Both the position numbers and the translations under genes were made by a program. This document shows positions 32,685 to 60,500 of a stretch of DNA of 61,769 nt, in pieces; position 1 is the first letter of the stretch, and each line of letters begins with the position of its first letter. The notes beneath the pieces are model-generated. The model was not told where the DNA came from and did not search any database. It saw only the letters and a list, made by a program, of their open reading frames with translations. The stretch is taken from the NCBI GenBank assembly GCA_949294455.1, contig CASFHD010000004.1:1-61769 (forward strand). The letters run 5' to 3'. Source of the stretch: an uncultured Christensenella sp. GTDB taxonomy: Bacteria > Bacillota > Clostridia > Christensenellales > UBA1242.

Positions 32685-32951
32685 AATATTTCCTTTTTAA
32701 TATGCTATCATTGTTTTTTTTTAAAGTCAAGAAATTTATTTTTATTTATTTTTATGTATATTATATATTTTTTTGTTTTTTATGTCTATTTAATCATTAC
32801 TTTCTGTATTTTAAAGAACAAATTTGCTGTTTTTGTATTATTTTAATAATAAAAAAATAATAAAAAAAATTAAATATTTATATTTTTTTGTTAGTATTTA
32901 AAGAATTTTTGTGGTATAATAAGGACAAACATATATTATAGGGGTGTAATA

Positions 32952-35363
32952 ATGGAGTTTTTTTTAGCAAGTGGGATTTATAATGGTTTGGGGAAATTGC
33001 TTGCTACTATAGGTAATAATTTACAGCCAAGTACTATTTTATATATAGCACTAGCTGTTTCTTTGCTGATAATTATAAGTATTTCTATAACTACTTCTAG
33101 GTCCTATGAAGTAAAGTTAATTAAAGCAATTGATTATTTGAATGAATTCTTTGTCGCAAATCCTCAAATTGATGAAGATAATTTAATTGCTTTCAACGAA
33201 AAAATGAAAGAAAAGCGTATTCCTAAAATTCTAAGAAAGCAGTGGCAACAGTATATGCTATATAGGGAACACAAGGCGAGTTATTATATGTCGTTTAAGC
33301 AGTGTGTTGAAAATCCTATTAGCGCAAGTACTTATAAGTATAATGTATCTTTAGCAAACAAAACATTTAACATTCTTTTAATAGTTGTACTATTATTAGG
33401 ATTTTGTTATTTTTCGCTAGTTGGTGAAGGAGCTCGTGCTATATCTTGGGGTGATGCTTTAACTTTTGTTTTGTCGCCTTTTGTTGTGATATTGATTAAA
33501 TATATTGTTGAAATAATTTTTGAAGCTAGGTTAAATGCTGTTACTTCTGATTTATTACAAAATTATCAATATTTTGAAATTAATTTAGACAAAGCAACAT
33601 CGACTATGCCTGAATTTGTTGACTATGAAGTTTTGTTTACTAAAAAAGAAATTAAACAAGGTATTCCAATTTTATACGAATATCTACAAAAGCGTGCCGA
33701 ACAAGAACAGAAGGAATTAGAAAGAGCAAGAAGTAAAGAAGTTGAACACGATAAATACAACTTTGATAAAGAAGATATTGAAGGTTCTTTAGTTTTGGAG
33801 CGTGCAGTAAACGAAACAGAATCATTTATTGCACAAAGACAAAAATATATGCAATTAATTGACCAGTTGACTACCGAACAAGCAAATATTGAATATAACT
33901 ATAAACAAAGTTCTAAAGACTATCAAAGAAAAATGCAATCTAGTAAAGAAAATTTAGAGAATTTGAATCAACAAATGGAACAAGCGTCTTCTAATATTGA
34001 AGCAAACTATATCAAAAAACAGCAAAGTGATGAAATATTGCGTCAACAAAACCTTGAAAAAGATTTTGATATAGCAACTGCAAAAATGAAAAATGATGTG
34101 CAAAATATTCAAAAACAAATTGATAAATATTATGAAGAAATTGATGCTAGCAAGAAATATTTAGAAACTGCTATGGATAGCGAGTTCGATAGTTATGCTA
34201 AAAAAGTTTATGATAAACTAGAAGTAAAGGTAAATGAAAAAGAAAAAGAAAAATATAAATCCACTTCTAGTAAAATAAAACAACTAGAAGAAAAACTTGC
34301 ACAAAAATCTGCTGAACTAGAAAATATGTACAGCAAATATCAAGCAAAGATTGAAGAACTACAATCTATCATAGACGGCGATGCTATTATTAGACAAAAA
34401 ACTGGTGAAATAGTAACTGCCATAGAATCTAAAAAAGATAAAAAGAAAAATAAGTCTGGACAATCTGACCAAACTGAAACTATAAACAATGTTGAGCAAA
34501 ATTTAGATTCAAAGAATCCTTTAGATAATACATATAACGCTGTTTCAACTAAATTAAATAATGATGAAAGTTATTTTGAACAATCAAATGAAATTGTTGG
34601 CGATATTTCATCTAATCAATCTGATGAATATAAAGAAAATGCTGATATAACTTTGCCAAATCAAGATATGTTTAATATTCAAGAAAACATCATTGAGAAT
34701 AAACCTACAACTAAAGGGACTATCAAAAAAGGTAGAGGTCGTCCAAAAAAGAAAATTGCAGAAAAACAAAGTAGTTTAGCCTCAACAAAGAAAAGAGGCA
34801 GACCTAGAAAATCTAATCAAGATATTCAAACTTTAAATAATGAAATAGCTGAAAAGAGAGGACGTGGCAGACCTAGAAAAGATACAAATAGTGAATCTAT
34901 CAAATCAACAGACGAATTAAATACACCAAAGCGTGGTAGAGGTCGTCCTAGAAAGGTGGAAAATGTAGAAAAATCTAAAAGCAGTTCGCCACAACAAACA
35001 AAAAAAAGAGGAAGACCTAAAAAAGTGGTTGAAAGCAATCAACAACTTAAACCTGCTAGTCAACCAAATGATATCGAACAAGAAATTAAGAATGAACCTG
35101 TTGAGAAGTTCTTGGGAAGTTTGCAAGAACTTTCAGATATAATAACATCTGAAATGAAAAGGGCAGACGAAAAGAAAGATGAATTAGAAAATTCTAGTTT
35201 GTCAAAAGATGAAATTGCTAAGAAAACAAGAAAACTAAGATTTGCAAAAAATCAATTAACTGCTCTTGATAAGTTGTTGTTGTCTGACGGTGAAGTTGAT
35301 TTAGATGAAATAAATAAAACTTTAAAAGGTATTTCAGAAAAAATAACTAAAATAGCAGAATAA
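32952..35363 (+). CDS. 3-TM membrane protein with long coiled coil and five AT-hook motifs
   Basis: TM segments near aa 25-48, 138-157 and 168-190. Coiled coil near aa 240-470. Five (K/R)xGRP(R/K)K motifs at 34725-35024. Confidence 0.75.
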   Translation: MEFFLASGIYNGLGKLLATIGNNLQPSTILYIALAVSLLIIISISITTSRSYEVKLIKAIDYLNEFFVANPQIDEDNLIAFNEKMKEKRIPKILRKQWQQYMLYREHKASYYMSFKQCVENPISASTYKYNVSLANKTFNILLIVVLLLGFCYFSLVGEGARAISWGDALTFVLSPFVVILIKYIVEIIFEARLNAVTSDLLQNYQYFEINLDKATSTMPEFVDYEVLFTKKEIKQGIPILYEYLQKRAEQEQKELERARSKEVEHDKYNFDKEDIEGSLVLERAVNETESFIAQRQKYMQLIDQLTTEQANIEYNYKQSSKDYQRKMQSSKENLENLNQQMEQASSNIEANYIKKQQSDEILRQQNLEKDFDIATAKMKNDVQNIQKQIDKYYEEIDASKKYLETAMDSEFDSYAKKVYDKLEVKVNEKEKEKYKSTSSKIKQLEEKLAQKSAELENMYSKYQAKIEELQSIIDGDAIIRQKTGEIVTAIESKKDKKKNKSGQSDQTETINNVEQNLDSKNPLDNTYNAVSTKLNNDESYFEQSNEIVGDISSNQSDEYKENADITLPNQDMFNIQENIIENKPTTKGTIKKGRGRPKKKIAEKQSSLASTKKRGRPRKSNQDIQTLNNEIAEKRGRGRPRKDTNSESIKSTDELNTPKRGRGRPRKVENVEKSKSSSPQQTKKRGRPKKVVESNQQLKPASQPNDIEQEIKNEPVEKFLGSLQELSDIITSEMKRADEKKDELENSSLSKDEIAKKTRKLRFAKNQLTALDKLLLSDGEVDLDEINKTLKGISEKITKIAE

Positions 35364-35385
35364 AAAAACCCGTTCGGGTTTTTTT
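35362..35385. terminator. bidirectional intrinsic terminator
   Basis: AAAAAAACCC-GTTC-GGGTTTTTTT touching both convergent stop codons. Confidence 0.8.
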
Positions 35386-35572
35386 ATTTATTGTTTAACT
35401 TTTTTAAAACTTCATTTACATCTATTCCGTGTACAAGACAAGCTTGTTCTAATGTTTCTTGATGTGCCATCATACAATGTAAACAATGCATTCCAAATCC
35501 TAACAAAATTGCTTCTGCGTCTTCTTTGTTTTTTACTATGTCTATAATCAAATCATCTTTTTTGAATTTCAT
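35384..35572 (-). CDS. DUF1858 domain protein (hybrid cluster protein-associated redox disulfide domain)
   Basis: GMHCLHC...ETLEQACLVHGID. GGAG SD. Confidence 0.88.
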   Translation of the reverse strand: MKFKKDDLIIDIVKNKEDAEAILLGFGMHCLHCMMAHQETLEQACLVHGIDVNEVLKKLNNK

Positions 35573-42462: not shown

Positions 42463-42532
42463 AAATTAATTATATAAATTATTTTATTGGGTAAAATAAA
42501 GTAATTTTATACGAATGAAGATGAGGGGTAAT

Positions 42533-45500
42533 ATGAAAAAATTAGGGATTGCATTTTTGATGCTTTTCACCATAATTTCTGGTGTCATTTTTTCAGCGTG
42601 TAAATCTGATTATGATGGAATGTATTTAGACATTTCTTATAAAACATTTTATTACCAAGATAACACAATGAATTACGACTTTGATGAGTATGAAGACTTA
42701 GATGAAGATGTCTTTAATTTTTCGTTGTATGAAGAAGTTGATGGACAGACAATAGATTATGTTGGCGTTGAATTTAAAGTCGAAACAAAGGGTAGTAAAA
42801 AAACTTCCAGCGTTGAACTTTGGACTAGAAGTAATACTAATTTTGAAGTCGTTTCAACAAGTTATTCAAATGGTGCGACTATAATAATAGTAAAATTTAA
42901 CAATGCGGGTATAAGTGTGGTTGATTTTACTGCAAAAGAAAGTGATAGTTGCAAAAGACAAGTAACATTTAATGTCGCTTATGAACTTGAAAGTTTAACT
43001 TTAAAAAATTTGGATAGTGCACCTGCTATGTTTATAGGCTCTAAAATTGACCTTAGTGAAATGAATTTGTTCAATTTCTTAGGAAAAGATGGGCAAACTG
43101 CTTTTAGCACAGATTTGTATTTTGAATTAAATTCAACTAATATGCGAGAAAAAAATTATAACAAGAATTACCTTACTTCAGTTAGTTCTGATGTGAACAG
43201 ATTGTTGTTGCCCGGAGATGTTAATGCTGACTACATTACATTCACTAATGATGGCGAACTCTCTGTTTCTAGTGCATATTTTGAATATAGCAAACAACAA
43301 ACTGCAAATAATACCCCTGACAACATTGTTTACTGGATTTGTTTTACTGTGCGACCTATGGTTTTGAATGATATTACAAAAGAATATGAACCTTCAAGAG
43401 AAATTTCGTGTGATGTTAATGTTTTAATTGTGGATAGTCTTGATAGTGCGGTTTTATCTTATAGCAATGTTTCTATGTCTTCCACTGATGGAAATATTGC
43501 TGATGAATACATATTGGAAAATGATAGTATTATAGATATTTTTACAGGCAAACAAGAAGATGTTTTTAGAACAATCAATACTTCTGATTCAAGCAAAGTT
43601 ATTGACTACACTAAAGCGGGAATAAGAGTTACTCCTTTTAATGATGATTACAATTTTATTAAACCATTAAGTAATATTAGTTCTGGTTCTGTATCATTGT
43701 TGGAAATATTTAATTACATTGACATTAGTTATTCTTATGCTGAAAATTACATAAAAGTTGAAAATGGTTTAGCGTCTGGTAGTTTTAAAGATTATACAAT
43801 TACATTTGGAGATGCTGGATTTACTGATGAATTGCAACAAATCACATTTAAAATTAAATATACTAATTTAATCTTTGACAAAAATGTATCAAATGAACAA
43901 GTAGTTAAAGATATCTCTTTGAATGTAAAATTAAATAAATTGTTAGATGGAAACTCTGCAATAAATGCTTATCAAGTTGATGAATTAGGTAATGCTTCTG
44001 TTGAAAGTATTGAAAGTTTTAAGTTGTACGATGAATATTCTAACAATTCTAGTCTAAAGATAAAATTCGAAAAGACTCCTACAGATGCGAATTTGTATGA
44101 TATTTATGGAAATTTATTATCTAACTTCCAATTGCTTTTAACTGAAAGTAGTTTTAATGCGATTAATGTTTTAGATAGTTTGGGAAGACTAAAAAATTAT
44201 TATTTAATTAATCTAAATATTGGTGGCAGGGTTGAAAGTTATTATGCTTTTAATGTGAATTTTGGAGAAACTGTTAGTTTTACATTAAAAGATAATTACA
44301 CAGGCAGTGATGAAATATTTAATTTGATAATGAAATATTCAAAATATCCTTTAAATTTCTGTAACGAAAATACGCCTATAACTGAAAGCGACATAATCAC
44401 TGAGACTTTTAGTTTGCGAGTAGTTAAGACTCCAACTAGTTTAAAGATTGTTAACCCTTTAGTTAGCGAAGAAATAGGTCTATCAAATGTCGATTTACCT
44501 ATTGGCAACGCTTTAAGGTTAAAATTATTGCTTGAAGGTGGGCAAGAATTTGAACTTAATGGAATAACAATTTCAAGTAAAAATGGAAGTTTGTTGTTTG
44601 GAACTACAAATAACATAAATAACTACACTGACCATTTAACTATTGATAGTTATGAAGTGGGTGCTTCATATTCGTTCTATGTATATGCAAATTCAGAACT
44701 AAATGATGAACAAATTATTGTGAATTATCCTAGTGGAAAATCTGTTTCTGTGATGTGTAATGCGGTTTTGACTGAATCTAGGGTCGATGTAGAAAACGCA
44801 GAATTCATTTATACAAAACAAGATATAGGTTATGAAACAACTTCTAATATTACCCTTGCTGACAATGCGTTAGGGCTTGCTTTATTAAAGGGTGGAATTA
44901 TTACGTTTAATCTGCCTGATGATTTAAATATAAATACTATTTCAACTAATGTTTTAGGTGCTGGGGATATTAATACTCAAATACAAAATTATTTGCCAGA
45001 TGCGATTAGTTTGGAAATGTTAAGTGGAAATTTAAACGAATTTAGAGTTTATGGTGTTAGAGCTGGCGCTACTGCTAAAATCAAAGTTGGTATATCTTTT
45101 TATATCGTTGAAAATGGTGTTGCAAAATTAGATGAAGTTTATAAATATATAGAAATTGCAGTTTATGAAAGAGTTTCAAATATATCAATTAGTAGAACTT
45201 CAGATAATTCATTTGTTTACTATCAAGATTCTTTAAGTCCTTATACCGAAAATTTAAGCAATGTTGATTATTTAGTCGATTACAATATTTCTTCAGCTAC
45301 AAGATTTGTAAACTTTTCGGGCGGACAAGTTGAAGTATTTAATATGTCATTTGCTGTAAATTATAAATCAAATGATAAATCTAATGTCAATTTTAAAGTT
45401 TATTATCTTGGAAATATTTATAATTCAAATGAGATTTTTGGTGTCCTTAATCCTTATGCTAGCAGAGATATAAGTTTGAATGTAATTACAAAGCCAGATG

Positions 45501-48500
45501 AAAATTTATCTAGAATTAGATTTGTTTTGACAACTACCGAGTTTGGTAAAAAGTTAGATGAGAGATTTATTGATACTGAAGTTTTAGAAGGTGTGAGAGT
45601 TGAAAATATTTTACTGAATGGTGTAGATTATAAAATTGTATCTGAAAATGGTGTAAATAAAATCAGATATAGCGAATACATTAATCTAAACGAATCTAAA
45701 TCTTTTGAAGCATTAATCAGTAATATTGATTATGCAACTTATCCAATTTTAGGTTATACTATTCAAGAATATGATGGTTCAGATTATATTAAGTTTGGTT
45801 ACACTTCAGAACAACTTGAAAAATACATTGCTGTTGATGGCTCGAATTATACAATAAATACTGTTGATAATGAAACTGGTGAGATTTTAGGTGGCGGTAT
45901 ATTTGTACTTACTATTGGAAGTCTTGATAGTTTTGATGGAAGTGTTTATAAAAACGCTGTACAAATTTATATTTATATTTCCGATGGAGTAAATCTTCCA
46001 TATTTTGTAGATAGTTTAGATGATTTGAAAAATATTTCAGTCGCTTCTGATAAAACATTCGCTTTAATTAAAGATATTGATGCAAGCGAACTTGACTCTC
46101 AAATTTGTGAAGAATTTTCTGGGAATTTGTTGGGCTATGTAAATGATGTTGGAACTAGCACAATAACTCAATATAAAATACACAACTTAAAATTGTCTGA
46201 AAGTTTTATAAGTGCAACTTCTACCGCAAATGGTAGCAGATTGTCGATGGGAATTTTTGGCAGAAATTTAGGTAAAATTTCGTCTATCACATTTGAAATT
46301 TCATCATTTAATGTTGATATTGAAAATCCTACAGAAGTGGTTTCATTGGGCTTGATTTGCGGTGTAAACGAAGCAGATGGAATTATTGAAAATTCTTCAG
46401 TAAAACTTCTTTGTGATGCCTTAATTAATTTACAAGCAGATATTAATACGAGTGATGCTAATATAAGTTTATTCGTGGGCGAAAATTATGGATTGATTTC
46501 TTCTGATTATGGAAAAATTATTGATTCTAATAATTATCAATTTGTTGTAAATTACTATAATCAAGCGGGTGAAACAAGAGGAATCAACATTTCAACAGGC
46601 GCTTTGGCGGGAGTTAATGCAGGCAGTATTTTAGGAGCGTATGATTATACTTCTTCTATTAAAGGGTCAGTGTATTCTTTAATTAATTTACAAGCAAACA
46701 TTAAAGTATCTTCTTATTCTGGCAGTATCTCAAATGTCGGAAATAATGTTGACCTCGCTAATTTTTATACGGCAGGTGCTGTCGGAATTAACTCTGGAAA
46801 AATCTCAAATATTTGTGCAAATGTTGTTGCAAATTCGTATGACTTTGTAGGCGGATTTATCGGTGTAAACGAAGGAGTAGAATCTGAAGCGTTTAATCTG
46901 TATCTTTTAGGTGCACAATTAACTTCTTTAAACAGTTCAGACAGTTTCGTTGGTGGAATTGCAGGAAAAATTTCATCAGTGCAAAACTTTGAAAACAACA
47001 GGGTGCAATTATTAAAAATAAATGGTCAAAATTCATTTATTCAAGGAGCACTAAATGTTGGTGGTATTGCTGGATTATTGGAAAACGGAAACATAAATTT
47101 CTGCTATGTTGAAAGATTTTATTCTGACACTTATAAAAATACTGATGACTCTATTAATTTAGTAGGAGAAAATTATAAATATTCTATTAGAAATTTATCA
47201 GGCTTTGTTGCAAATTTAGCTGGTATTGCAAATGGTTCTAACAATATAACTAATTCATTTATAAATACTAGTTTCTATACTGACAATGCATCAAATATAA
47301 AAACTATTCCAGATGGCTCAAATTACTCAATTTCAAAAGTTTACTATTCTGGAAATTTACCAAATGTCGATTTAAATGGTGCTTATTATACATTTGAAAG
47401 TATAGAGATAAATAGTTTAACTAGTTCGTTTGACAGCAAAAATTATTCGGGGGTAATTGATAGTTTTGTTACTCAATCAAATTCGGATAATATTATTCAA
47501 ATACATTTGAATGCGAATAATGGTCTTCCTATTATCGCATACGAGTTTGATGGAAATATAACTTATACAAACACAGTTGTTCCAACTAGTGCTAGCGCTG
47601 TAACAAATGATGATAAATTGTTTAAAGAAAACTTGCAAGACAACAGTTTGGTGGAAGAAATAAAAAATTCTAACTTGTTGTATAATGAAAATCATTTTAC
47701 AGGAATTAAGTTGCAAGACAGTGAAGCAGTATTATTCTATTATGAAAGTGATGAAATTTATAACGAAAATGCAGGTTTTGTAAAAGTTCAAAACGAACTA
47801 AATAAATATTATTTAGTGGTAGATGACTCTTTGATTTTGTGGAAAACTGAACCTGATGGCGCTAGTCTATCTTATGAAGTAAATATTTTAAGCGGTGAAA
47901 ATGTAGCAGATTTAGGCATTGATGAATTAGGAAATTATTATATTGTTTTGAAAAGAACAGGAGATGTTGTTCTTGAAATATCATCAATATTTAATGAAGA
48001 TATAAAATCTACTTTTATAGTACATTCAAGTTGCGGATTTACAAATCTTGATTTGTCATTGAACAATGATAATGAACCTATCAGTACTAATAATGAAAGA
48101 GTTGTTTTATATGTCAATCAAACTAAAAATTTAAAACCATTTATTGAAAATGTTTATAATAATTTTAAATTTAATTCAATAGAGTTTAATAATTTGAAAT
48201 TAAAAATTTATGCAGGCAATAATGTTGAGATAACAGGTAACGAGTTTGATTATTATAATTTTGATGATATTATAGGATTTACGGGAGTTAATTTTTACGA
48301 AGACGGGCAATATAAAGATTTCTCAATTATAGTTGAATACTATTACCTTGAAGACGGTAATTATTATTACTTATGTTCAAAGGAAATTGATTTTAGAACA
48401 TATAAAACTGCAATTTCGATAGAACTTGATGTAAATAAATTTGAAACTGAACCTAGCGAAGTGGTAGATTTTGTCGTTAATTTTAACACTTATTATGCAG

Positions 48501-51500
48501 TTGATGAATCAAGTTATTTATACTTAGATAATCAACTAGAAAATGGAGAAATTTCGTATTCTAGTGATGCATTAATATTGTCTATAATGGGCTCAACTGA
48601 TAAAGATAATGAACTAATTTTTGAAATCTTACAAAAGACTAACAAAAGTTCAGTTTATGATGTATTTGAAGTTGATTATACTGTGAGTAAACTTGGTTTT
48701 ACATACTCTTATCAAATATCTTTATCACTTGTTGATGATTTTAAAATTAGATATTTAGTTGACCAAATAAGTTTCAAATTAATGTTTAGAGCACTGACAG
48801 ATGAAGATGTTAAAAATGATAATTTAACTATTGTTTATAGTCCTGAAAATCTTTCAACTGTTAGAATTGAACATTATTCTAGCGGAACTATTGTTACTAA
48901 TTCTAATGCAAACAACAAAGTTGAATACATTAGTGGTACAACACAATCAAATGTTATTGTGCCAGGAAATAGTGGATTATTAAAATTTTATATCGAACCT
49001 AGTTATTCACTTGTTAACGATTTGGTTTTAAGGGCAAGTTATGGTCAAATTAGCGGTCAAAGAATTACCTTCCAACAAATGATTTATGACGGAACTAAAT
49101 ATATTTCTCTTAGCCATTCATCAAATTACGGTTTTATGTCAAACGGTAGTTATAGGCTTGAAAAAATATCATCTTATGATTCAACAACTAATTCTTATTC
49201 ATATAATGGTGTTATTTATGTTAGAACAATCTTAAATGATGCTGAAGGTAATAATGAATTATATGATATTTACTTAGATATTTATAAATCTAATATATAT
49301 GGTAATGGAAGTGCAGATGAAACGCTAACTAAAACTTTAATTTCACAATATTTACCAGGTGTTTATATTAGCGTTAGTGAAAATTCTTTATATACCTCTA
49401 TAGACGGCAATAACTATTACATTTTGCAAAGAGGTGCAGGTGCTAATTCTAATAATGCTTCATATATAGATGTGGCAGTTGTAGGATATGAACTTATAGG
49501 TCTTCCAAATTATCAAATAATTGGTGATAATATTTATGATAAAGTTTATCTTGTACAATCACAAGAAGCAGTTTACGATGAAACAAGTGGTAGATATAAC
49601 ATTAGATATTCTGTATTTGTAAGAAGTGATTTATTTGAAAAGTTTTCTATTAAATTTTCAATGGAACTTGTAAAAGACGGAATTACATATACTCAAGAAA
49701 AATTAGTAAACTTCATTACAACAGATTATATATTAGATTCAATAAATGTAACGAATTTGCACTCTACAATAAATTCAAGTTCTACTCTATTTATGAATTT
49801 AAATTCATTGAATGGAGAAATTGACCTTAATGAATTTTTAATAGATAATCAGGGTGTTATAGATGACAATAAAGTTATAAACTTTTTAAAGAATTTTAGA
49901 TTGTCAAACGGAGATTTATCTAATTATTATGTGCCTCAAAGTCAGTTGCAGTCGGCTTTGACTGATCCTAATAATGCAAATAAAGAGTTTTTAATCTATT
50001 ATGACAGCATTTCAAAAACATTTAGAATTTATGGTAGAATGATATCTAATTTCTCTGTAACTGTAGAAGTCCCATACACTTTCAAATTTGCAGATGATTT
50101 TAAAAATTATGTTGAATTGTCGTTTGATGTCTCTGGATTATCTTCATACTATGTGGCTGAAACGAATTTTAATATAACAATCTCTACAAGCACAGATGAA
50201 AATCAACCACGCGCAATTTATAACGCAGAACAATTTATGAATATGAATGCTGGTGGCGATTATATCTTGATGGAAGATATAAATCTCTATGGTTACAGTC
50301 CTATTAGTTTTAACGATAGCAACGTTATTTTCAGTTTAGATGGAAATAATAAAGTTATCAATATTTACTCATTTGATGTGAGCGGTAAAACTAATATAGG
50401 TCTATTTGAAAGTTTAGGTCAAAATTCTATACTTAAAAATGTTACTGTGAATATCGCAAATCTTCAAACTGTTAATATGTCTGGGGTCAATTCATTTAAC
50501 TTTGGTCTGTTAGCAGGATCAAATGAAGGTATTATTTACAATTGTGAAGTAATATCGTTTGATCCTAATCAAAATTCGAAAGTTGATTCAGTTATAAATA
50601 TTTTATCACAAGATAGTGTTTCATCAAGTGCGTCACACAATTTGATAGGGTTGTTAGTAGGTGAAAATTTAGGTAATATTATAAATTCACGAGTTGGCTC
50701 TAGTAGTTTTAAAAAAGTAACAGTGAGTGTAAATTCTTTAGGTGCTAACAACACTGTTGAAAATATAATAAGTTGCGGTACTATTACTTTAAATGCAAGG
50801 GGAGTAGTTGCAGGACTTGTCGCTGTAAATAGCGGTATAATATCATCGTGTTATGTAGCGAATACAACGGTTAATAATTTATATGAATTAAATAATTCGT
50901 ACAATATGACGGCGGGATTGGTCGCTGAAAATTCTAATAATGGTAAAATAATTTATTCTTATGTTGAAGGTTTGCAGTCAAGCATTAGTCAAACTTCTTT
51001 AAGGGCAAGCACAAATAAAATATACTCATATATAGGTAGCGTTGGTGCGTTTGTCTATACAAATTCAGGAACAATTTCTGATTGCTATGCAAATATTTTT
51101 GTAGAAAGTAACACTCAATTTGTTTCAGGATTTGCGTATATTAACGAAAATTCAGGCAAAATATTGCAGTCTTATTCGGTGGGAAATATTTCATCAAATT
51201 CTACATCTAATCAGCCATTTATAGGTGCAAATTTAAAAAATGAATTAAATTCATTTGGTGAAATTACAGATTGTTATTATCTCAAATTAGACAGTGATAA
51301 ATTTAGCGTTATAATAGACGGAAGCAAACCAAACGCAGTTGAATTAAATAGCGTAAATATTCAGTCAAGTGATAGTTTTAATAATTTCTGTTTTATTGAT
51401 GGCATTGAAAATAGTGAACAGGGAGTTTGGACTTTAAAAAATTCAGTCCTTCCTAAACTTGTTAGTGCAAATCAAATTGCAGTTTCTGTAAAATATTTTT

Positions 51501-54500
51501 ATGGAGGTGTTTCTTACTTTGCAGATGATTATGCTTATGGTAGCAGTATAAATCCTTATATAGTTAGAGATGTTGAAGAATTTAATACTTATATTGCTTT
51601 TGATAATGAAACTTCTGCTACTAGTAAATTCTTTAATGGATATATTAGACTTGTCGATGACATAGATTTCACTGGTCTTGATATGGAAACAAGGACTGAA
51701 ATGGATATGCAGGGCGTAATTGATGGTAATGGTATGACTCTATCAGGACTATATATTGGCCCTACACAAACTAGTCAATCTAGTATAGGCTTATTCTCTA
51801 CTATTACAAATGGTGTTGTGAAAAATTTGAACATAGAGTTTGACACAATTGAAGAAGCAAGGGGTTCTAGTTATGTAGGTGGACTTGCAGGTATAATTGA
51901 TGATTCAATTATATTAAATGTTACACTGAGTGGCGAAAACAAAATGCTTACAGGGGATAACTTTGTAGGCGGTCTTGCAGGTTTAGTAAGAGGGGAAAGT
52001 GTATTATTTAACATTTCTTCTAATTTAAGTGTAAAAGCAACAGTTAGAAACTTGGAAAATTATATAAGAAGTGGTGAAAATAATTTTGCTTATGAATATT
52101 TGAATGAAGAAGATTTTAATTATCAAAATTTTGGCTTTAGTTATAGCGGCTATAATACTTACAATGAATATCTTCGAAACTTAAGTTATGCAGGCGGTAT
52201 TGCAGGAGTGCTTGATTTAGACGAAAGTCCATTAAATGAAAATGCTAAACGATTACAAGTTTATGGCAATGTTCAAATTGTGGGCGTCAATGCAGGTGGT
52301 ATTGCAGGCTACACATCTATTGATACAAGTATTAAAAAGGGCTATGTTGAATTAAGTAATGGAAGTTTTGTATTGGGTGTTTATTCTTCTGGTGGTATTG
52401 CAGGAATTAATTATGGCGATATTTATCAGAGTAAAGTTCAGTACTCGGATAATGATAACTTTAGAGAAAGAATTCGAGAATATGAACAAAATCCATCTGA
52501 ATCAAATATTGAAATTTCTAATCAACGAATCGTTGAAAACGCTTACTATCAAGACCAAGTTAGAATTGGCAGTTCGAGTTATTATTCTTTGTTATTGGGT
52601 TCAGTCTATGTAGGTGGTGTTGCTGGTATTAATTTTGCAGGAGAAATTTACAATACATTATCTTCCGTTGTCGTTTATACAGATAGTGAATATTTATCTG
52701 GTTTTGTGGGACTAAATATTGGTGGTAAATTCAATTATGTTTATTCTAATTCTTTAGTTAAGTTGACTGAAAGTAATAGTTTTATGGGCGGAATGTTTGC
52801 GTATATAATGTCCGCTTCTAATAAAAAAATAAATATTGAAAATGGCTCATATTATTCAAATAGTATGAAAGCGTTGGAAGTCTATAACAAATTCTATAAA
52901 AATGTTGATGGAAATGATGATTTATCTGTAGATTTGTATTCAGTTGTTTCTGGTATTGCATATGATAATAAATTGATTTCTTTATTTAATTCTAATCAGT
53001 CAAAATCATACAAAAATTTATTTGTGGGATATATTGATGAAAATGTAGTGTTTGTAAATGATTCTGTTAATAGTTCAACTGATTTAGATACAAATACTTT
53101 CGTAACTGTTTATTATAAGGCTGAACAAAATGTTATAACAAATATTAGTTCGGTTTATAATTTCAATACTTATGATTCAAATCTTTTAAATACTAAAACG
53201 GATAGGTCTAGTGAACAAAAAGCTTTGTTTAGAAGAATGTTCGGGAATTGGCCTATTGAGTATTGGGATATTAATAATCAATCAAAAGAAATTTATTTCC
53301 CACCACTATTAGATAAGTCAATTAATAATTATTATGAAATTTCTAGTTCAGAAGATATGGGATTAATTGGCCTATATCCTGATGCTAACTTTGTAGTAAC
53401 TAACGATATAACTATTTCGGCATACAATTATGTTGCAGATGTCGTGTTTACAGGTAGCATTGTAGGGGTGGAAATTGAAGATGCTTCAGGTGTAAAGAGA
53501 TTACCAAAAATCACTATTGATTTGTCTCTTTCTAACTTTAATGGTGCAAAATCTATTACAGGTGCAGGTTTCTTTAAGCAAACTGAAAACGCTATAATTA
53601 GAAATTTAGATATTGAGTACATTATAAAAGAAGTTAATTCTAATCAGGAATTGCGTCAGTATTTTGGTGGTATCTCATCTATGGATATCGGTTCTAGTTT
53701 TGAAAATCTTTATGTGTCTTTTGAATTTGCTAGCGGAAATTCAGAAATTACGAATGTTAGTTTTGAACAATTCGGTGGATTAATTGCAAATTCAACTGAT
53801 TCGTTTATAACAAGTTGCGTTGTAAATATAGGAAGTAACGAAAACATTCAAGAAATTGATTTTATAAAGGCTGGTAATAATAAAAACGCAAGTTTTGGCG
53901 GTATTGTTGGACACGCAGATAGTTCAATAAAATTAGATGAAAACAATGAAAATTACGATTATGTAATTTTGTCAACTCAAGCAAATTTATATATTGATTT
54001 GCATATTGATGCTATAAATTCGTATGTGGGTGGCGTAGTTGGCGATATAAATAACAAAGTTTATTTGTCAAGCGCTACTGCTTCTGGTAAATTAAATGTT
54101 TATTCAGTTGACAACACTAATTCAAATCAAATTTCAATAGGTGGAATAATCGGATATGCTAAAAATGTTGTGTTTGATAATATTTATATATCGAATTTAA
54201 ACATTTCATTAAATATTAATTCTAATAAGAGTTCTCAATTTGACAAATCTATTGTGGTTGGCGGTATTGTTGGCGAAGCATTAAATATGCAAGGAGAAAA
54301 TTCTTACTCTAAAAATTCTACAATTACAAATAAGGTGTCATCTAATAATTCATATATTTACGGTGGTTTGATAGGAAAAATATCAGCTCAATCTTCACTT
54401 AAAAATTCTGTATCAAATATTGAAATTATTGACGAGTATTCTAAATATCTGACGGCGGGTGGTATCACAGGAAGCAATTCTACTGAAGTGGAATATTTAA

Positions 54501-57500
54501 ATGTATTCAGCAATACTTTGATGTCTTTAAAAACTGTTGATACTGTAGAAGATAGTTTGAACATATTAGTCGGTGGATTAATAGGTAATGTTTTAGGAAA
54601 TACTACTATATCAGATTCAATATCTGCAGGTAGAATAAACCTTGAAACGAACTCTTATCAAAATGTTGGTAAAATCAGTGTTGGTGGAATCATTGGCGTA
54701 ATTGAAAATGGTAAAATTTTAGTAACACGAACTATTACTATTTCAGTAATCTCAACATCTCAAATATCAAAAACTTATAAACAAGTTGATGCAGTCGATG
54801 TGTTTGTTCTAAATCAAGATGCTGTAATAGGTGAAAATTTAACTTCTGATTATAATATTGAAGTTTATTATTCAAGTGATTATACTTTATGCGATTCAAA
54901 TATAGGTTCTAACTATTCTGTAGATGCGCTTTTAAGCAAACAATTTGTTGCATCGTTAGAAGGGTTTACAAACAATTATGTAGGCAATGAAATAGTAAGT
55001 ATTCCTTATATGTCAAGCATTAAAAACTACCTTGTTTTGTCTGATGTTATGAATGAAGAAGGATTATTTGATTTGGGTAGTGCTATGCGTCCTATATCTA
55101 TAAATAATCAAAATAGAACAAATGCAATAACAGATAGTGGCTTTAATTATTATTATTTAAAAGAAAATCTAGACGATAAATTTAATTGTACATTTGCGTT
55201 TGAAGGAATTATTTTAGGTAACAATAAAACTATAAATATTACAAACTTTAATCTATTTAATGGATATATGGCATTAATTCCAGAAATCAGTAATAATAGT
55301 GCAATCTCAAACATTACATTGACTCTAAATAATGACATATCTTTAACACAAAAAACAGGACTATTAGTTGGCGTAAATAATGGTAATATATACTCTTGTT
55401 CAGTTGATTTTGATGGTATTAGTTTAACAAGCGGAAGTGAAACAGCATTTGTAGTGCATACTAATAATGGAAACATTTCTAATAGTTATTCTAGTGCAGA
55501 ATTAAAATCTGGTGTTGGTGCAACCTCTGGTTTTGTTTACTTAAATAACAATGTAATACAAAATTCATATTTCAACGGATATATAGGTGCATTAAATAGT
55601 TCAGGATTTATATTTGATAATGGTGAAAATTCATATCTTGAAAATTGTTATAGTGCAGGTGTAGTTCAAGGCTTAAAACAATTCGGAAATATTGCAGAAG
55701 TTAACACAGTTTGGAAAAATGTTTATTTTGATAAATACGCTACGAATTCATTATCAGAAGAAAACAATACTATTAACATAAAAGGTGTATATTCAGTAAA
55801 TTTAATTACATTAAACAACATTGATTTGGGTGATGAATTTACTGCAAACATTGTTGAAAATACTTCTGATGGGAAATTTAACAACACTTATACTATTAAA
55901 AATTTCGGTTTGAATTTCGGTTATCCTACAATTATAACCACTCAATACATTTTAAAATTAGATGATGAAACAAATAGTTTAAAAATTGTTGAAAACACTT
56001 ACTTTGGAGGAATTGAATCAGTTGTTGTAAAAAATGAGACAATTGATGAAAATGAATCAACTATCATAACAGTTTTAATTAATCATTTGGGAACACTTGA
56101 TAGCGTTAGAATGTATGAAAATAGTGGCAATTTTGCAAATGCTTTCACATACTTAAATACTAAATATGAAATCAATTCAAATAGGTCTATTAAATACAAT
56201 ATAATTTATGATATTTCAGCGACTAGTGATGTGGGCGGATTAAGTGGAAATTGGTTATCACTTGGATTAGAAAATTTGAAAACAGATGCTGGAAATATAA
56301 ATTATAAAGATTATGCATTTAGTTCAAATAATTTCAATTTCACAAAAGATTTGTCAGGCTTTAAATATAGAAAAATCTCTAATGAAATTTCTGCAATTTA
56401 CAATTTATCAGGACAAAGTTTATTCAACAGCATTTCGAATTCAAAAATTAGCAATATTAACTTTGGTGGGACTTCTAACTTTAGTACAGATGCTGGGCTC
56501 ATTGCTACAAATATGATAAGTTCTAGTGAAATTTATAACATTAAAGTTTTAAACAACGCTAGAATTAATTCATCACAAGCAGTTGGTGGTAATTTGGGTG
56601 GACTTGTAGGCAATATGTCAAATGGCTTAATTTATGACATAACCTATTTATCAAATGTAACTATAAGTGCAACTAATGGTTATATAGGTGCTATTGTTGG
56701 TTATATGTCTGGTGGTAATATAGGCAAAGTTGAGGCAAATACTATCTTATCATCAATAAGAATCGAAGATTTGAAATTTGACAATAATCAAAACACTTTA
56801 CACGGCGGTATAGTTGGTTATTTAGAAGATGGCAACATATATTTAGCAGATGATATAAATAAAACTAAAATCAATATAACTGCTGGTAGCAATGTTGGTG
56901 GAATAGCGGGTATTGCAAAAGTTCAAGGCGTCAAAAATGAGTATAGAGATGATGGCAGTTGGTTTGGGTTTAAAATTGAAAATGAATCTATCATTACAAT
57001 CCAAGGTACAGACTCGTTAGGCGGACTTTATGCAAAGGTTGAAGAATTAACTTTCACAAGTAATGTATCAATTAATGCTACATTAAATGGAGTTAGCAAT
57101 GTTGGTGGTATTGTAGGCCGTATTGAAGATAATTCATCAATGACTACCTCTTCAAACATTACAGTTGAATTTACAGGAAGCATAGGATTAAATGGATTTG
57201 CTTCTACATTTAGGGCTAATTTTGGTGGCATTGTAGGTTTACTATCAAATTCAAATTTATCTGCTGGTGAAAGCGGTGCTTTTGTAAACAATGGTAGTGT
57301 TGGTAATCAATATGAATATACATTAGTAAATATCGGCGGTATTGTAGGTCAAGCTAACGGAAGTTCTTCAGTTACAAATGTAACAAATAAAGGTAATATT
57401 TATGGTTTATACAATGTTGGTGGTATTATAGGATTATCAACAGGTGAAGAAAGTGCAAACATCAATGTAGAAATCACCAATGCTATAAATGAAGGCAATG

Positions 57501-60500
57501 TTTATGGCAATTTAGGTTTTACAGACTCTGGAGAAGAAATTGTTTTTGCAACAAATATTGGTGGTATAGTAGGTAGGGCTTACAAATCAATTTTTGTTGA
57601 CACTCAAATGAAAGGTAGAGTTGAATTACTGACAGAATTTAATGGTATCAATACATTAAAATCGGTAAAAAATAATTTTGTTGTCAACAATGCAATATCT
57701 AAACAACTCAATTCAGAATTAGAATCAGGTATCGGTGGTTTTGCAGGTAGTTTGTCAGATGTTCAATTTAGTGAAAATAATTCGATTTTGGGTGAAATTG
57801 ATGCAAGAAATGGTGTAAATGTAGGTGCTATTGCAGGTTATGTTTACGATTTATCAACAAGCATACCTACTATAAATACTATAAATGTAAGTGGTTCGTA
57901 TTATATTGGTGGTTATTTTGGTAAAATTGGCGAAGGAATTAATTTAGAATTAATGACCTTTAGTGGTTCAATTAATATAATGACAACAAATTATTCGGCA
58001 AACTATGTCGGCGGTATAATTGGTTATAGCAAGGTAGATATTTCTGGCTTATATATTGATGACACAACTTCAGGACAAATCAACATATTTAACAAAAATG
58101 TTTCGTATGCTGGAGGTCTAATCGGTTGCTTAGAAGACGCTAATATGGTCAATTTAATTGTAACTGATGATGATGGTCATTATTTGACTACTATTAATAA
58201 TGGTTATGCTGTAAACAAGGTGATTTTTGCAGATTCAGACAACTTAAATTATGGCGGACTTGTTGGTGTATTAAGGCAAACAGATGAAAATATAAATAGT
58301 TTAACTATAGAAGGTGAACATTACTCACAATTTACTGTTGATACAATTGAAGTAACTGGTATTAAAACTACATCTTCTTCAATGAGTTCTAAACAAACTG
58401 ATAATAATTTCATTTTGTCAGCAACTGCTAACTATACATTAAATACAGAGTTCAAAATATCTAATTCTAGCAACTTTACAGAAGATGTTATTAATGGTGG
58501 AAATCCATTCTACAATGGTAAAAATTGGTCAAGTGATTATACTAAATTTAGAAGAATGCAAAGGATTATAGATGATGAAGCGAACGATATTTATTCGCTT
58601 GAAGAAGTATTTAATTTTGAATCAGTCTATGATTATGATGGAACAAATACCACATTAATTTTAGATAGATATAATGCCGACTATATTGGTCAAACTGGCG
58701 ATAGGCAAGATTTAATTAAATATTCAGGTAAAATTTATTCGACCGAAAATATTTCTGAAAAACCTAATACTAGAAATATTTGGTATTATATAAAGGATAG
58801 TTTTAAAAAGTTTGCTAATTCAACTCTTACTGATGTAGATAGAATTAATAATTATACTAATACAGGTAAAGCAAGTTTAATCAATGATTATCTAAATCAA
58901 AATTCATCAATGTCTGGCGTTTTGTCTGCATTAAATTCTAGACAAATTGCATACGACAGTAGCGGTAGAATTCTTGCAACTACTGATAACTATATTGTCC
59001 TAAATGATGCAGAAGGAAATAATTTAGTTTACTATTTCTATTCTACTAGTGAACCTACAGATTTCGGTGAAAATGAAGGAAATTACATTTTAAGAAATGG
59101 TGTATATTACATTTATTCTGGTGCATATATATCAGACGAAAATTCATCTGAATCTAACTTTGTTTCAAATGTTCCTACTGTAAATAGCAGCAATATGCAT
59201 GAACTTTATTATGATGAAAATAAAGTTGTTTATGTTTACGAATTTAGTGAAGACTTTAAAGATTTTGTTTCAGATGACCCAGATGATCAAATTCAAGTTA
59301 ATTCTTATTATACTTTAGACTTGTCAGATGAAAATCAATCAGCATTTGAAGTACAAACATATTGGCAGTATATGGGCGTTTCTAATGAATTCGACTCACT
59401 TGAAACTGCGTTAAATTCTGTTCCAATTTATAAGACTTTATACAATGGTTTATCAGAAAATGAAAAGTTGTATGTTGAAGGGAAAATATTTACATCTAAA
59501 GTATTCTATAGATATTCAGATTCTATAAATAACACAAGACCTTCAAGACAAGTAACTGAAAATATTTATAAAGATTACAATAGTTATCTTGATGGCGAAG
59601 AACCAATTTCTACTTCTACAACTGCACAATATTTGACAACAAGTGATTATTATAAATTGGGTAATTATTATTACATTTACAACAAAACTGATTTAGTTGA
59701 ACAGTATAATAGTTATGAAGAATTGTCAAATGGAAATTATAAAGTAACAACTTATAATTCAGCGACTGAAGGACTAAATAAATATAAATTGTGGTTTGCT
59801 TCTGTTGATAGGTATGGAAAGTTATATAATCAAGATAATGATAGTGCAATAAATATCACCAATCAAATTTTACTGCAATATTTATTTACAGATGAGAGTT
59901 CAAATTATAATTTACCAACAATAAAAATAAATCAATATGTAGGACACGTTCATAATGGTTACGTAGTTGGTGCTCAAAGAACGCCTGTTTTAAAAGATGG
60001 CTATTCAGGTATTTATAGTTATTCAAAGAAAAGCAATAATGGTTTTGTTCAAGTTACACCTGTTGACGACTATGAATATGAACCAATAATTACTTTTGTT
60101 GAAAAATTGGATTATTTAAAATATGGCGAGGGTGAATCACAAATATATACATTGTATTTTGAAACAAGTTCTACCTTTATAAAATATGTTAACAATTCTG
60201 ATATGCTAATTGAAAAGAATGATAGTAAAATAAACACTTATATTAGTGCAACAACTAATGGTACTGATTTGACAATATTCGATGGAAATGGAAATGAAAA
60301 TGTTATAACATTCTATAGGGGTACAGGCATAAATGGTGCTGACCAGTACTCTTTAAATAACTCTTCGGTTATAAACGATATAACAGATAATTTTGTTCAA
60401 CAATATTCAAATTATTATTGCATAAATGATGGTAAAACAATTCCTTTTGTAAGTTCAGACGAAACTGTTTTGACTTTTATTAAAATTTCAGGAAATCGTG

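Follow-up and report, generated by a model that had tools for sequence, protein, structure and literature searches.

What does a membrane protein do with five AT-hooks at the far end of its tail, in a bacterial genome of 27.6% GC and only 1.13 Mb? The gene lies at positions 32952–35363 of the plus strand in the window, the whole 61,769-nt stretch of DNA analysed here, which comes from an uncultured Christensenella sp. of the family UBA1242. The first-pass annotation saw in it a candidate DNA–membrane tether or DNA sensor. The protein proves to be a genuine, hitherto undescribed variant of the stator fold that lacks the motor. It may serve as a passive membrane scaffold that couples DNA to AddAB near the membrane, a reading to which we give a probability of about 0.38.

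Layout of the gene and its protein

The 803-aa product consists of a ZorA-like head, a helical stalk, a linker, five AT-hooks and C-terminal helices, and the genes flanking it lie on the opposite strand on both sides. The open reading frame and its three TM helices, as first annotated, are real, with hydropathy peaks at aa 28–46, 139–157 and 164–194. The head (aa 1–223; 32952–33620, plus strand) is composed of an N-terminal helix, TM1 at aa 28–46, a soluble domain at about aa 50–135, TM2 at aa 139–157 and TM3 at about aa 166–190. The peak spacing matches the soluble domain of about 90 aa that had been placed between TM1 and TM2, and this membrane-proximal domain is the best-conserved part of the head. 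The AF2 model of aa 1–300, built with 110 sequences in the alignment, is all-helical with a mean pLDDT of 90 and a pTM of 0.74.

A conserved helical neck and a predicted coiled-coil stalk follow at aa 220–475 (33609–34376, plus strand), and they are present only in the UBA1242 long forms. The coiled coil is predicted for about aa 278–475, as judged from the sequence and the start of the AF2 model. Column conservation among 103 long forms is 0.42–0.67 over aa 201–440 and about 0.2 beyond aa 440. The linker at aa 480–590 (34389–34721, plus strand) is poorly conserved and likely disordered; it is net acidic as annotated, but mildly so, with 13 K/R versus 20 D/E. In many other long forms, L009, L013 and L018 among them, the linkers carry Tyr/Gly/Asp-rich, octamer-like repeats of a YYD type, reminiscent of the OCRE or the mycoplasma EAGR/HMW repeats.

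The five hooks occupy 34725–34754, 34788–34811, 34854–34880, 34929–34955 and 35001–35024 of the plus strand and start at aa 592, 613, 635, 660 and 684, so their spacing of 21–25 aa agrees with the roughly 20 aa read at first. Pfam PF02178 matches all five at E 1.7e-10, with a score of 39.9 bits where the cut-off is 17.4, and is the only Pfam match in the protein. The hooks have the R-G-R-P core with basic flanks that defines an AT-hook. By chance, RGRP is expected 0.001 times from the protein's composition and 0.35 times in the 930 predicted ORFs, among which just one further ORF carries one; a chance origin is thus excluded. The hook codons vary among the copies, so the array is not a fresh DNA repeat. 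The C-terminal helical domain (35094–35360, plus strand) is recognized from alignments and from its profile match to a minimal form of the protein.

A promoter is predicted at 32891–32920 of the plus strand, with a −35 element TTAGT at 32891–32895, TG at 32912–32913 and a −10 element TATAAT at 32915–32920, the call being a consensus match only and the −35 non-canonical. In relatives, an extended −10 occurs in 72 of the 103 gaps between addA and the gene, versus 10.8 expected by shuffling, and a terminator-like hairpin in nine of them. In 58 of 102 UBA1242 promoters, TTAGT or CTAGT precedes the −10 by exactly 24 nt, and TTGAC does so in none. A TTAGT-type −35 within the span scanned accompanies 7 of the 313 extended −10 sites in the host genome, and the orthologue promoters of other families mostly have TTG-type −35 boxes. 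The TTAGT element is possibly a regulator site. After the gene, a bidirectional terminator-like hairpin lies at 35358–35389 (plus strand), with 2 sites found versus 0.7 expected.

In an RNA run, 0.08 of the words were found. Contigs of a relative with 90–96% identity span parts of the gene and of the genes beside it, and transcription is not proven thereby. Elsewhere in the window, at 42515–60874 (plus strand), lies a 6119-aa ORF, neither half of which matches Pfam at E 0.001.

A ZorA-like head without an ion path

The head matches no family in Pfam, NCBIfam or PADLOC, and an ESM Atlas search returned only unnamed clusters, under 0.9. The literature searches, which covered main texts and few subscription papers, gave no description of this family. 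A layout like that of MotA/ExbB and ZorA had been read from the sequence, and Foldseek, VIA-align and the profile search together turn this likeness into a likely true homology.

With the AF2 model of aa 1–300, Foldseek puts ZorA at ranks 1–4 (E 2.1e-3 to 6.5e-3, none under 0.001; TMq 0.48–0.49), and TolQ and ExbB of the MotA/ExbB/TolQ family (PF01618) come next. VIA-align also ranks ZorA first with 254 residues aligned at an rmsd of 12.4, its Z of 11.8 being weak for helical proteins, as is any below 13. An unrelated bundle ties in Z (11.7) but over 110 residues only. A sequence profile from 52 sequences has ZorA at the top with an E of 0.015, and one from 53 more diverse sequences with 2.6e-5 (range to 1.1e-4). 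The match is colinear, running over profile 27–202 and ZorA 21–218. Taken together, the fold searches and the independent sequence profiles make the head likely to be a remote ZorA homologue, although neither fold-search score is decisive alone.

Beyond about aa 300, the long forms have a helical tail and the short forms lack it, and homology of this tail to the ZorA tail is at most putative. The PADLOC matches to ZorA3 and LmuB fall in the coiled coil at aa 216–475 and were discarded as effects of composition, and a class search with the PADLOC ZorA1 model gave mostly coiled-coil noise.

ZorA of the Zorya ZorA5B2 complex (PDB 8qyd, 8qyh, 8qyk, 8qyy and 8vvn) has the same colinear 3-TM head and membrane-proximal soluble domain, and an association with DNA-acting helicase or nuclease genes recurs in this family, as does a long helical tail in its long forms. 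The family differs in having neither zorB, whose product has a peptidoglycan-binding OmpA domain and an essential Asp, nor the T147/S184 filter, nor P136. It has also lost the Ca-site Glu and a 17-residue hairpin stretch. Moreover, it is a vertical core gene without recognized zorC/D/E, and the hooks and a C-terminal bundle replace the tail tip.

Of 170 members, 18 have Thr at the ZorA T147 column; at the S184 column most have Leu, Phe, Ile or Val, the Pro of the P136 column is not kept, and the GxxG[TS] motif occurs in five. All three residues matter for Zorya function, T147 and S184 in ion selectivity and P136 as a kink (PMC11946911). Conservation across the 170 members is instead concentrated in the soluble domain, away from the TM helices. 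In the profile alignment, the consensus opposite E86 of the ZorA Ca2+ site is non-acidic, and E89 lies within the 17-residue deletion. The AF2 head model has no strand, so the beta-sheet insert of the ZorA cytoplasmic domain is missing.

No B subunit was recognized either. PF01618 does not match the head, and no B-subunit gene adjoins the gene among the window neighbours by Pfam and NCBIfam. The lack of an adjacent MotB/ZorB partner, already noted at first, is thus borne out, and it extends genome-wide: MotA_ExbB, ExbD, MotB_plug and OmpA domains (PF00691, PF13677 and PF02472 included) are absent from the 98.8% complete genome. Likewise, zorC/D, zorE and zorF/G were not recognized among the window neighbours by Pfam and NCBIfam. 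A wall-less state was considered as the cause of the B-subunit loss and rejected, since the genome has two PBPs, one MraY-family gene and two Mur ligases. Four Mur ligases are the usual number. Only two Mur-ligase middle domains (G000:C15:13854–14405 and C6:11433–11819) occur in this 98.8% complete genome with its PBPs and MraY-family gene. The same 1.1-Mb genome has two tubulin/FtsZ-domain genes (G000:C2:71188–71670 and C2:114866–115330), one frame being only 247 aa.

In the cited literature, proteins of the MotA/ExbB/TolQ/ZorA fold work together with a B subunit and form ion-driven motors. Because the ion-filter residues are lost and no B subunit is found, the protein is not Zorya and, by its sequence, probably not an ion motor. 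An ion-driven 5:2 motor or channel with a too-divergent B subunit would keep the fold, as is the case, and ExbD/TolR-type B subunits often escape detection (PMC12505986). This rival is nevertheless very improbable, given the column counts above, the presence of the OmpA domain PF00691 in just 1 of 151 UBA1242 genomes and the lack of any small membrane gene consistently 3′ of the gene in relatives. The host genome also has no F/V/A-type ATPase nucleotide-binding domain, in accord with PMC12306168 for UBA1242.

Intact pairs do exist outside the order, where the two long matches examined are clostridial ZorAB/MotAB-like pairs (L221:427–2121, minus strand; L227:1312–3434, plus strand). Both keep the P-x-x-L-T-x-x-G motif of TM2 and a B gene, with OmpA in L227, whereas this family has neither motif nor B gene. 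Their helical tail is long, they lack the ZorA hairpin, and they are candidate ancestors of the family; L221 follows pilus-assembly-like genes as read from the sequence.

Vertical inheritance behind addA

With the first 457 aa as a query, 115 of the 151 UBA1242 genomes match, 112 of the 115 with a single match. Of the 36 genomes missed, a head profile retrieved 23, 22 of them solidly, for a total of 137/151; the match in G017 (E 8e-4 over 60 positions) was left out of the solid count. In the Christensenellales, 75 of 301 genomes match, and after two doubtful matches were dropped, the gene is found in UBA1242 and 13 further families. Among the rejected candidates, L210 is a false match, L209 was set apart as a different, L221-like relative, and the single other-family match of one search, in G025, is a false one across a stop.

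A scan of 1.84 billion representative proteins gave only 463 at E <= 0.001. The class search gave 26 matches outside UBA1242 and family f36, of which two were examined and the remainder are short, weak TM matches. One homologue is labelled Candidatus Onthoplasma faecigallinarum, and Candidatus Onthoplasma is a genus of UBA1242 in the Christensenellales (PMC12306168). Another homologue (P0288) bears the label Anaerocaecibacter muris, a cultured organism. The head and AddA trees of 127 loci share 44 of the 55 strong AddA splits with zero strong conflicts, and hence the gene is vertically inherited like a housekeeping gene. This agreement is one of vertical co-inheritance and not evidence of binding.

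In 79 of the 90 UBA1242 loci with at least 1 kb upstream, the gene directly follows addA in the same orientation, at a median gap of 106 bp, and in 21 of 22 further loci it comes directly after addB-addA. In other families it follows addB-addA in 31 of 37 loci and in L186 (32/38 in all), and it follows addA in 6 of 8 loci of family f8. Here addA and addB are identified by NCBIfam, and the loci are kin rather than independent. The downstream neighbours in relatives are highly variable. In the host genome, addAB is on contig C1, apart from the gene; the host clade of eight loci was separated from addAB in one event on the tree and accounts for 8 of the 11 exceptions among the 90 loci.

The corA gene also stays nearby, inside the sequence fetched, in 14 of 40 loci of other families, so part of the gene order may be inherited synteny. 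Having its own predicted promoter, the gene need not be co-regulated with addAB. Most gene-negative families of the order have AddAB without such a gene after it. We examined 20 addA downstream regions, 18 of them from genomes first scored negative, and found a family member or remnant in four; the others hold unrelated genes, so AddAB works there without the gene. Three UBA1242 genomes (G106, G113 and G416) have neither the gene nor a full addA match, and as the two are adjacent, their co-absence may reflect single assembly gaps or co-loss. In the UBA1242 genera without the gene (L334–L338; genera g3, g6 and g66), a short membrane protein gene follows addA (one gene further on in L334) and converges on spore-germination-receptor-like genes by sequence reading.

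The position after addA persists through drastic remodelling of the protein. A bundle of two to three helices ends most family members, long or short, in the alignments. It is weakly conserved across families, has no invariant column, and finds neither a Pfam nor a PDB sequence match. The C-terminal domain matches the minimal form of f8 with a profile probability of 89.8, and the model of that form has three helices there.

This minimal, 208-aa form (L341:3373–3996, minus strand; G031) has three TM helices but not the ZorA soluble domain, and it has 532 relatives. Its C-terminal bundle of 65 aa hardly varies across 43 aligned relatives. The TM part of this form aligns with no more than the first 43 columns of the head profile, so the kinship rests on the bundle and the gene position, and its fold search found nothing (best E 0.84). 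A 783-aa form (L339:1865–4213, minus strand; G217) is soluble and acidic, without the TM head, and ends in the bundle. Both forms follow addA. The core that lasts across the family comprises a membrane anchor, a flexible linker and the C-terminal helix bundle.

In families f23 and f19 the gene has moved away from addAB, and in f23 it precedes ftsA in all three loci examined (L198:4373–9076, L200 and L202), with ftsZ following and, in L198, a DivIVA-domain gene before it. Such placement bears on a rival function, that of a chromosome-to-membrane tether or a division/segregation scaffold, whose hooks or patches would bind the A/T-rich nucleoid and whose bundle would bind a division or segregation protein, the addAB order being merely inherited. 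The gene's near-core status and single copy in 112/115 genomes, its own constitutive-type predicted promoter and the sporulation of UBA1242 (PMC12306168) also suit the tether, as does the host clade, which kept multiple hooks though separated from addAB. On the other side, the ftsA link is seen in one family only, and members of the 13 other families keep the addAB position yet have no DNA-binding-like segment, for which a mere nucleoid tether gives no account. We consider the tether possible but somewhat unlikely.

A possible DNA grip and a possible station for AddAB

The hooks themselves are patchy. An RGRP is present in 33 of 96 complete long forms, with two or more in 29, and in 16 of 23 short UBA1242 forms, mostly as a single hook just before the C-terminal helices, but in none of the 37 complete members outside UBA1242. 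Of the 54 long forms without a GRP-type motif, 42 have a basic patch, defined as a net charge of +7 or more in 30 aa and often K/T/S/A-rich; outside UBA1242 such a patch occurs in 1/37 members. Conservation of the hooks in orthologues, which the first-pass annotation made a test of its DNA-binding proposal, therefore fails for the motif as such and stands for the broader property, as 84 of the 96 long forms have hooks or histone-H1-like basic patches. This property, too, suits the tether.

The median locus GC is 0.32–0.34 in UBA1242 versus 0.46 elsewhere, with hooked and hookless long forms alike. With hooks or patches in UBA1242 and almost none elsewhere, the putative DNA-gripping segments are a family-level addition. 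The AT-hook proteins HMGA and Myxococcus CarD, whose hooks bind the minor groove of A/T-rich DNA, have repeated RGRP cores flanked by K/R as here. They are soluble chromatin or transcription factors, whereas the hooks here end a membrane-anchored stalk.

On the scaffold reading, the three TM helices would anchor the protein so that its tail reaches into the cytoplasm, and several copies might form a ring like that of ZorA. The positive-inside charge count gave no decisive topology, and the cytoplasmic side is suggested by ZorA homology, by which the capture of extracellular DNA, one of the functions first proposed, becomes unlikely. The C-terminal bundle, carried on its flexible linker, would bring in a partner protein, with AddAB the likeliest candidate. 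The tail of ZorA would be a parallel, since it recruits ZorC/ZorD, effectors with DNA-binding and nuclease roles, or ZorE (PMC11946911 and PMC11890865). In the A/T-rich UBA1242, the added stalk and AT-hooks or basic patches would give a direct grip on A/T-rich DNA. The outcome would be DNA-end processing held at the membrane, for chromosome breaks or arriving DNA. In favour of this reading are the place after addA, retained even by the two remodelled forms, the shared inheritance with AddA and the three co-absences. Against it count the departures from addAB in the host clade and in f23 and f19, the gene's own predicted promoter, the partly inherited synteny, the families whose AddAB has no such gene behind it, the lack of hooks outside UBA1242 and the weak conservation of the bundle across families.

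Arriving DNA alone is the subject of another rival, a domesticated Zorya- or Kiwa-like catcher. Phage, plasmid or transforming DNA would be caught at the membrane and delivered to AddAB, to be destroyed, recombined or salvaged for its nucleotides. The closest fold is indeed that of an anti-phage protein, the host genome has a ComEC domain, and UBA1242 is without nucleotide biosynthesis (PMC12306168). Kiwa offers a precedent: KwaA/KwaB sit in the membrane as a complex, bind the DNA that phages eject and act beside RecBCD, the counterpart of AddAB (PMC11785009). Kiwa, however, has two mobile genes versus one core gene here, and its models do not match. A near-universal, vertical, single-copy gene is unlike mobile defence genes, no defence genes were recognized nearby, and the PADLOC matches come only from the coiled coil or single members. 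Furthermore, the Zorya sensing parts, ZorB and the ion path, are gone, and host DNA, at 27.6% GC, would be an equally good target for the AT-hooks. The catcher is thus unlikely.

As to origin, a Zorya motor subunit may have been domesticated at the root of a large clade of gut Christensenellales, losing the ion path and B subunit, adopting the housekeeping AddAB as its effector by way of the C-terminal bundle and, in the tiny A/T-rich genomes, gaining AT-hooks of a eukaryotic style, a scenario that we consider doubtful. If true, it would make the protein a membrane station for DNA-end processing and the first of the stator fold to work with neither B subunit nor ion flow.

The fold has been retained in about 90% of the UBA1242 genomes of about 1 Mb, and in 13–14 related families, without its partner or ion path. 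Its retention through extreme genome reduction suggests an important role. If the protein docks AddAB, double-strand-break processing would have a membrane address and a defence part would have turned housekeeping; if it tethers the chromosome, it would be a new nucleoid anchor.
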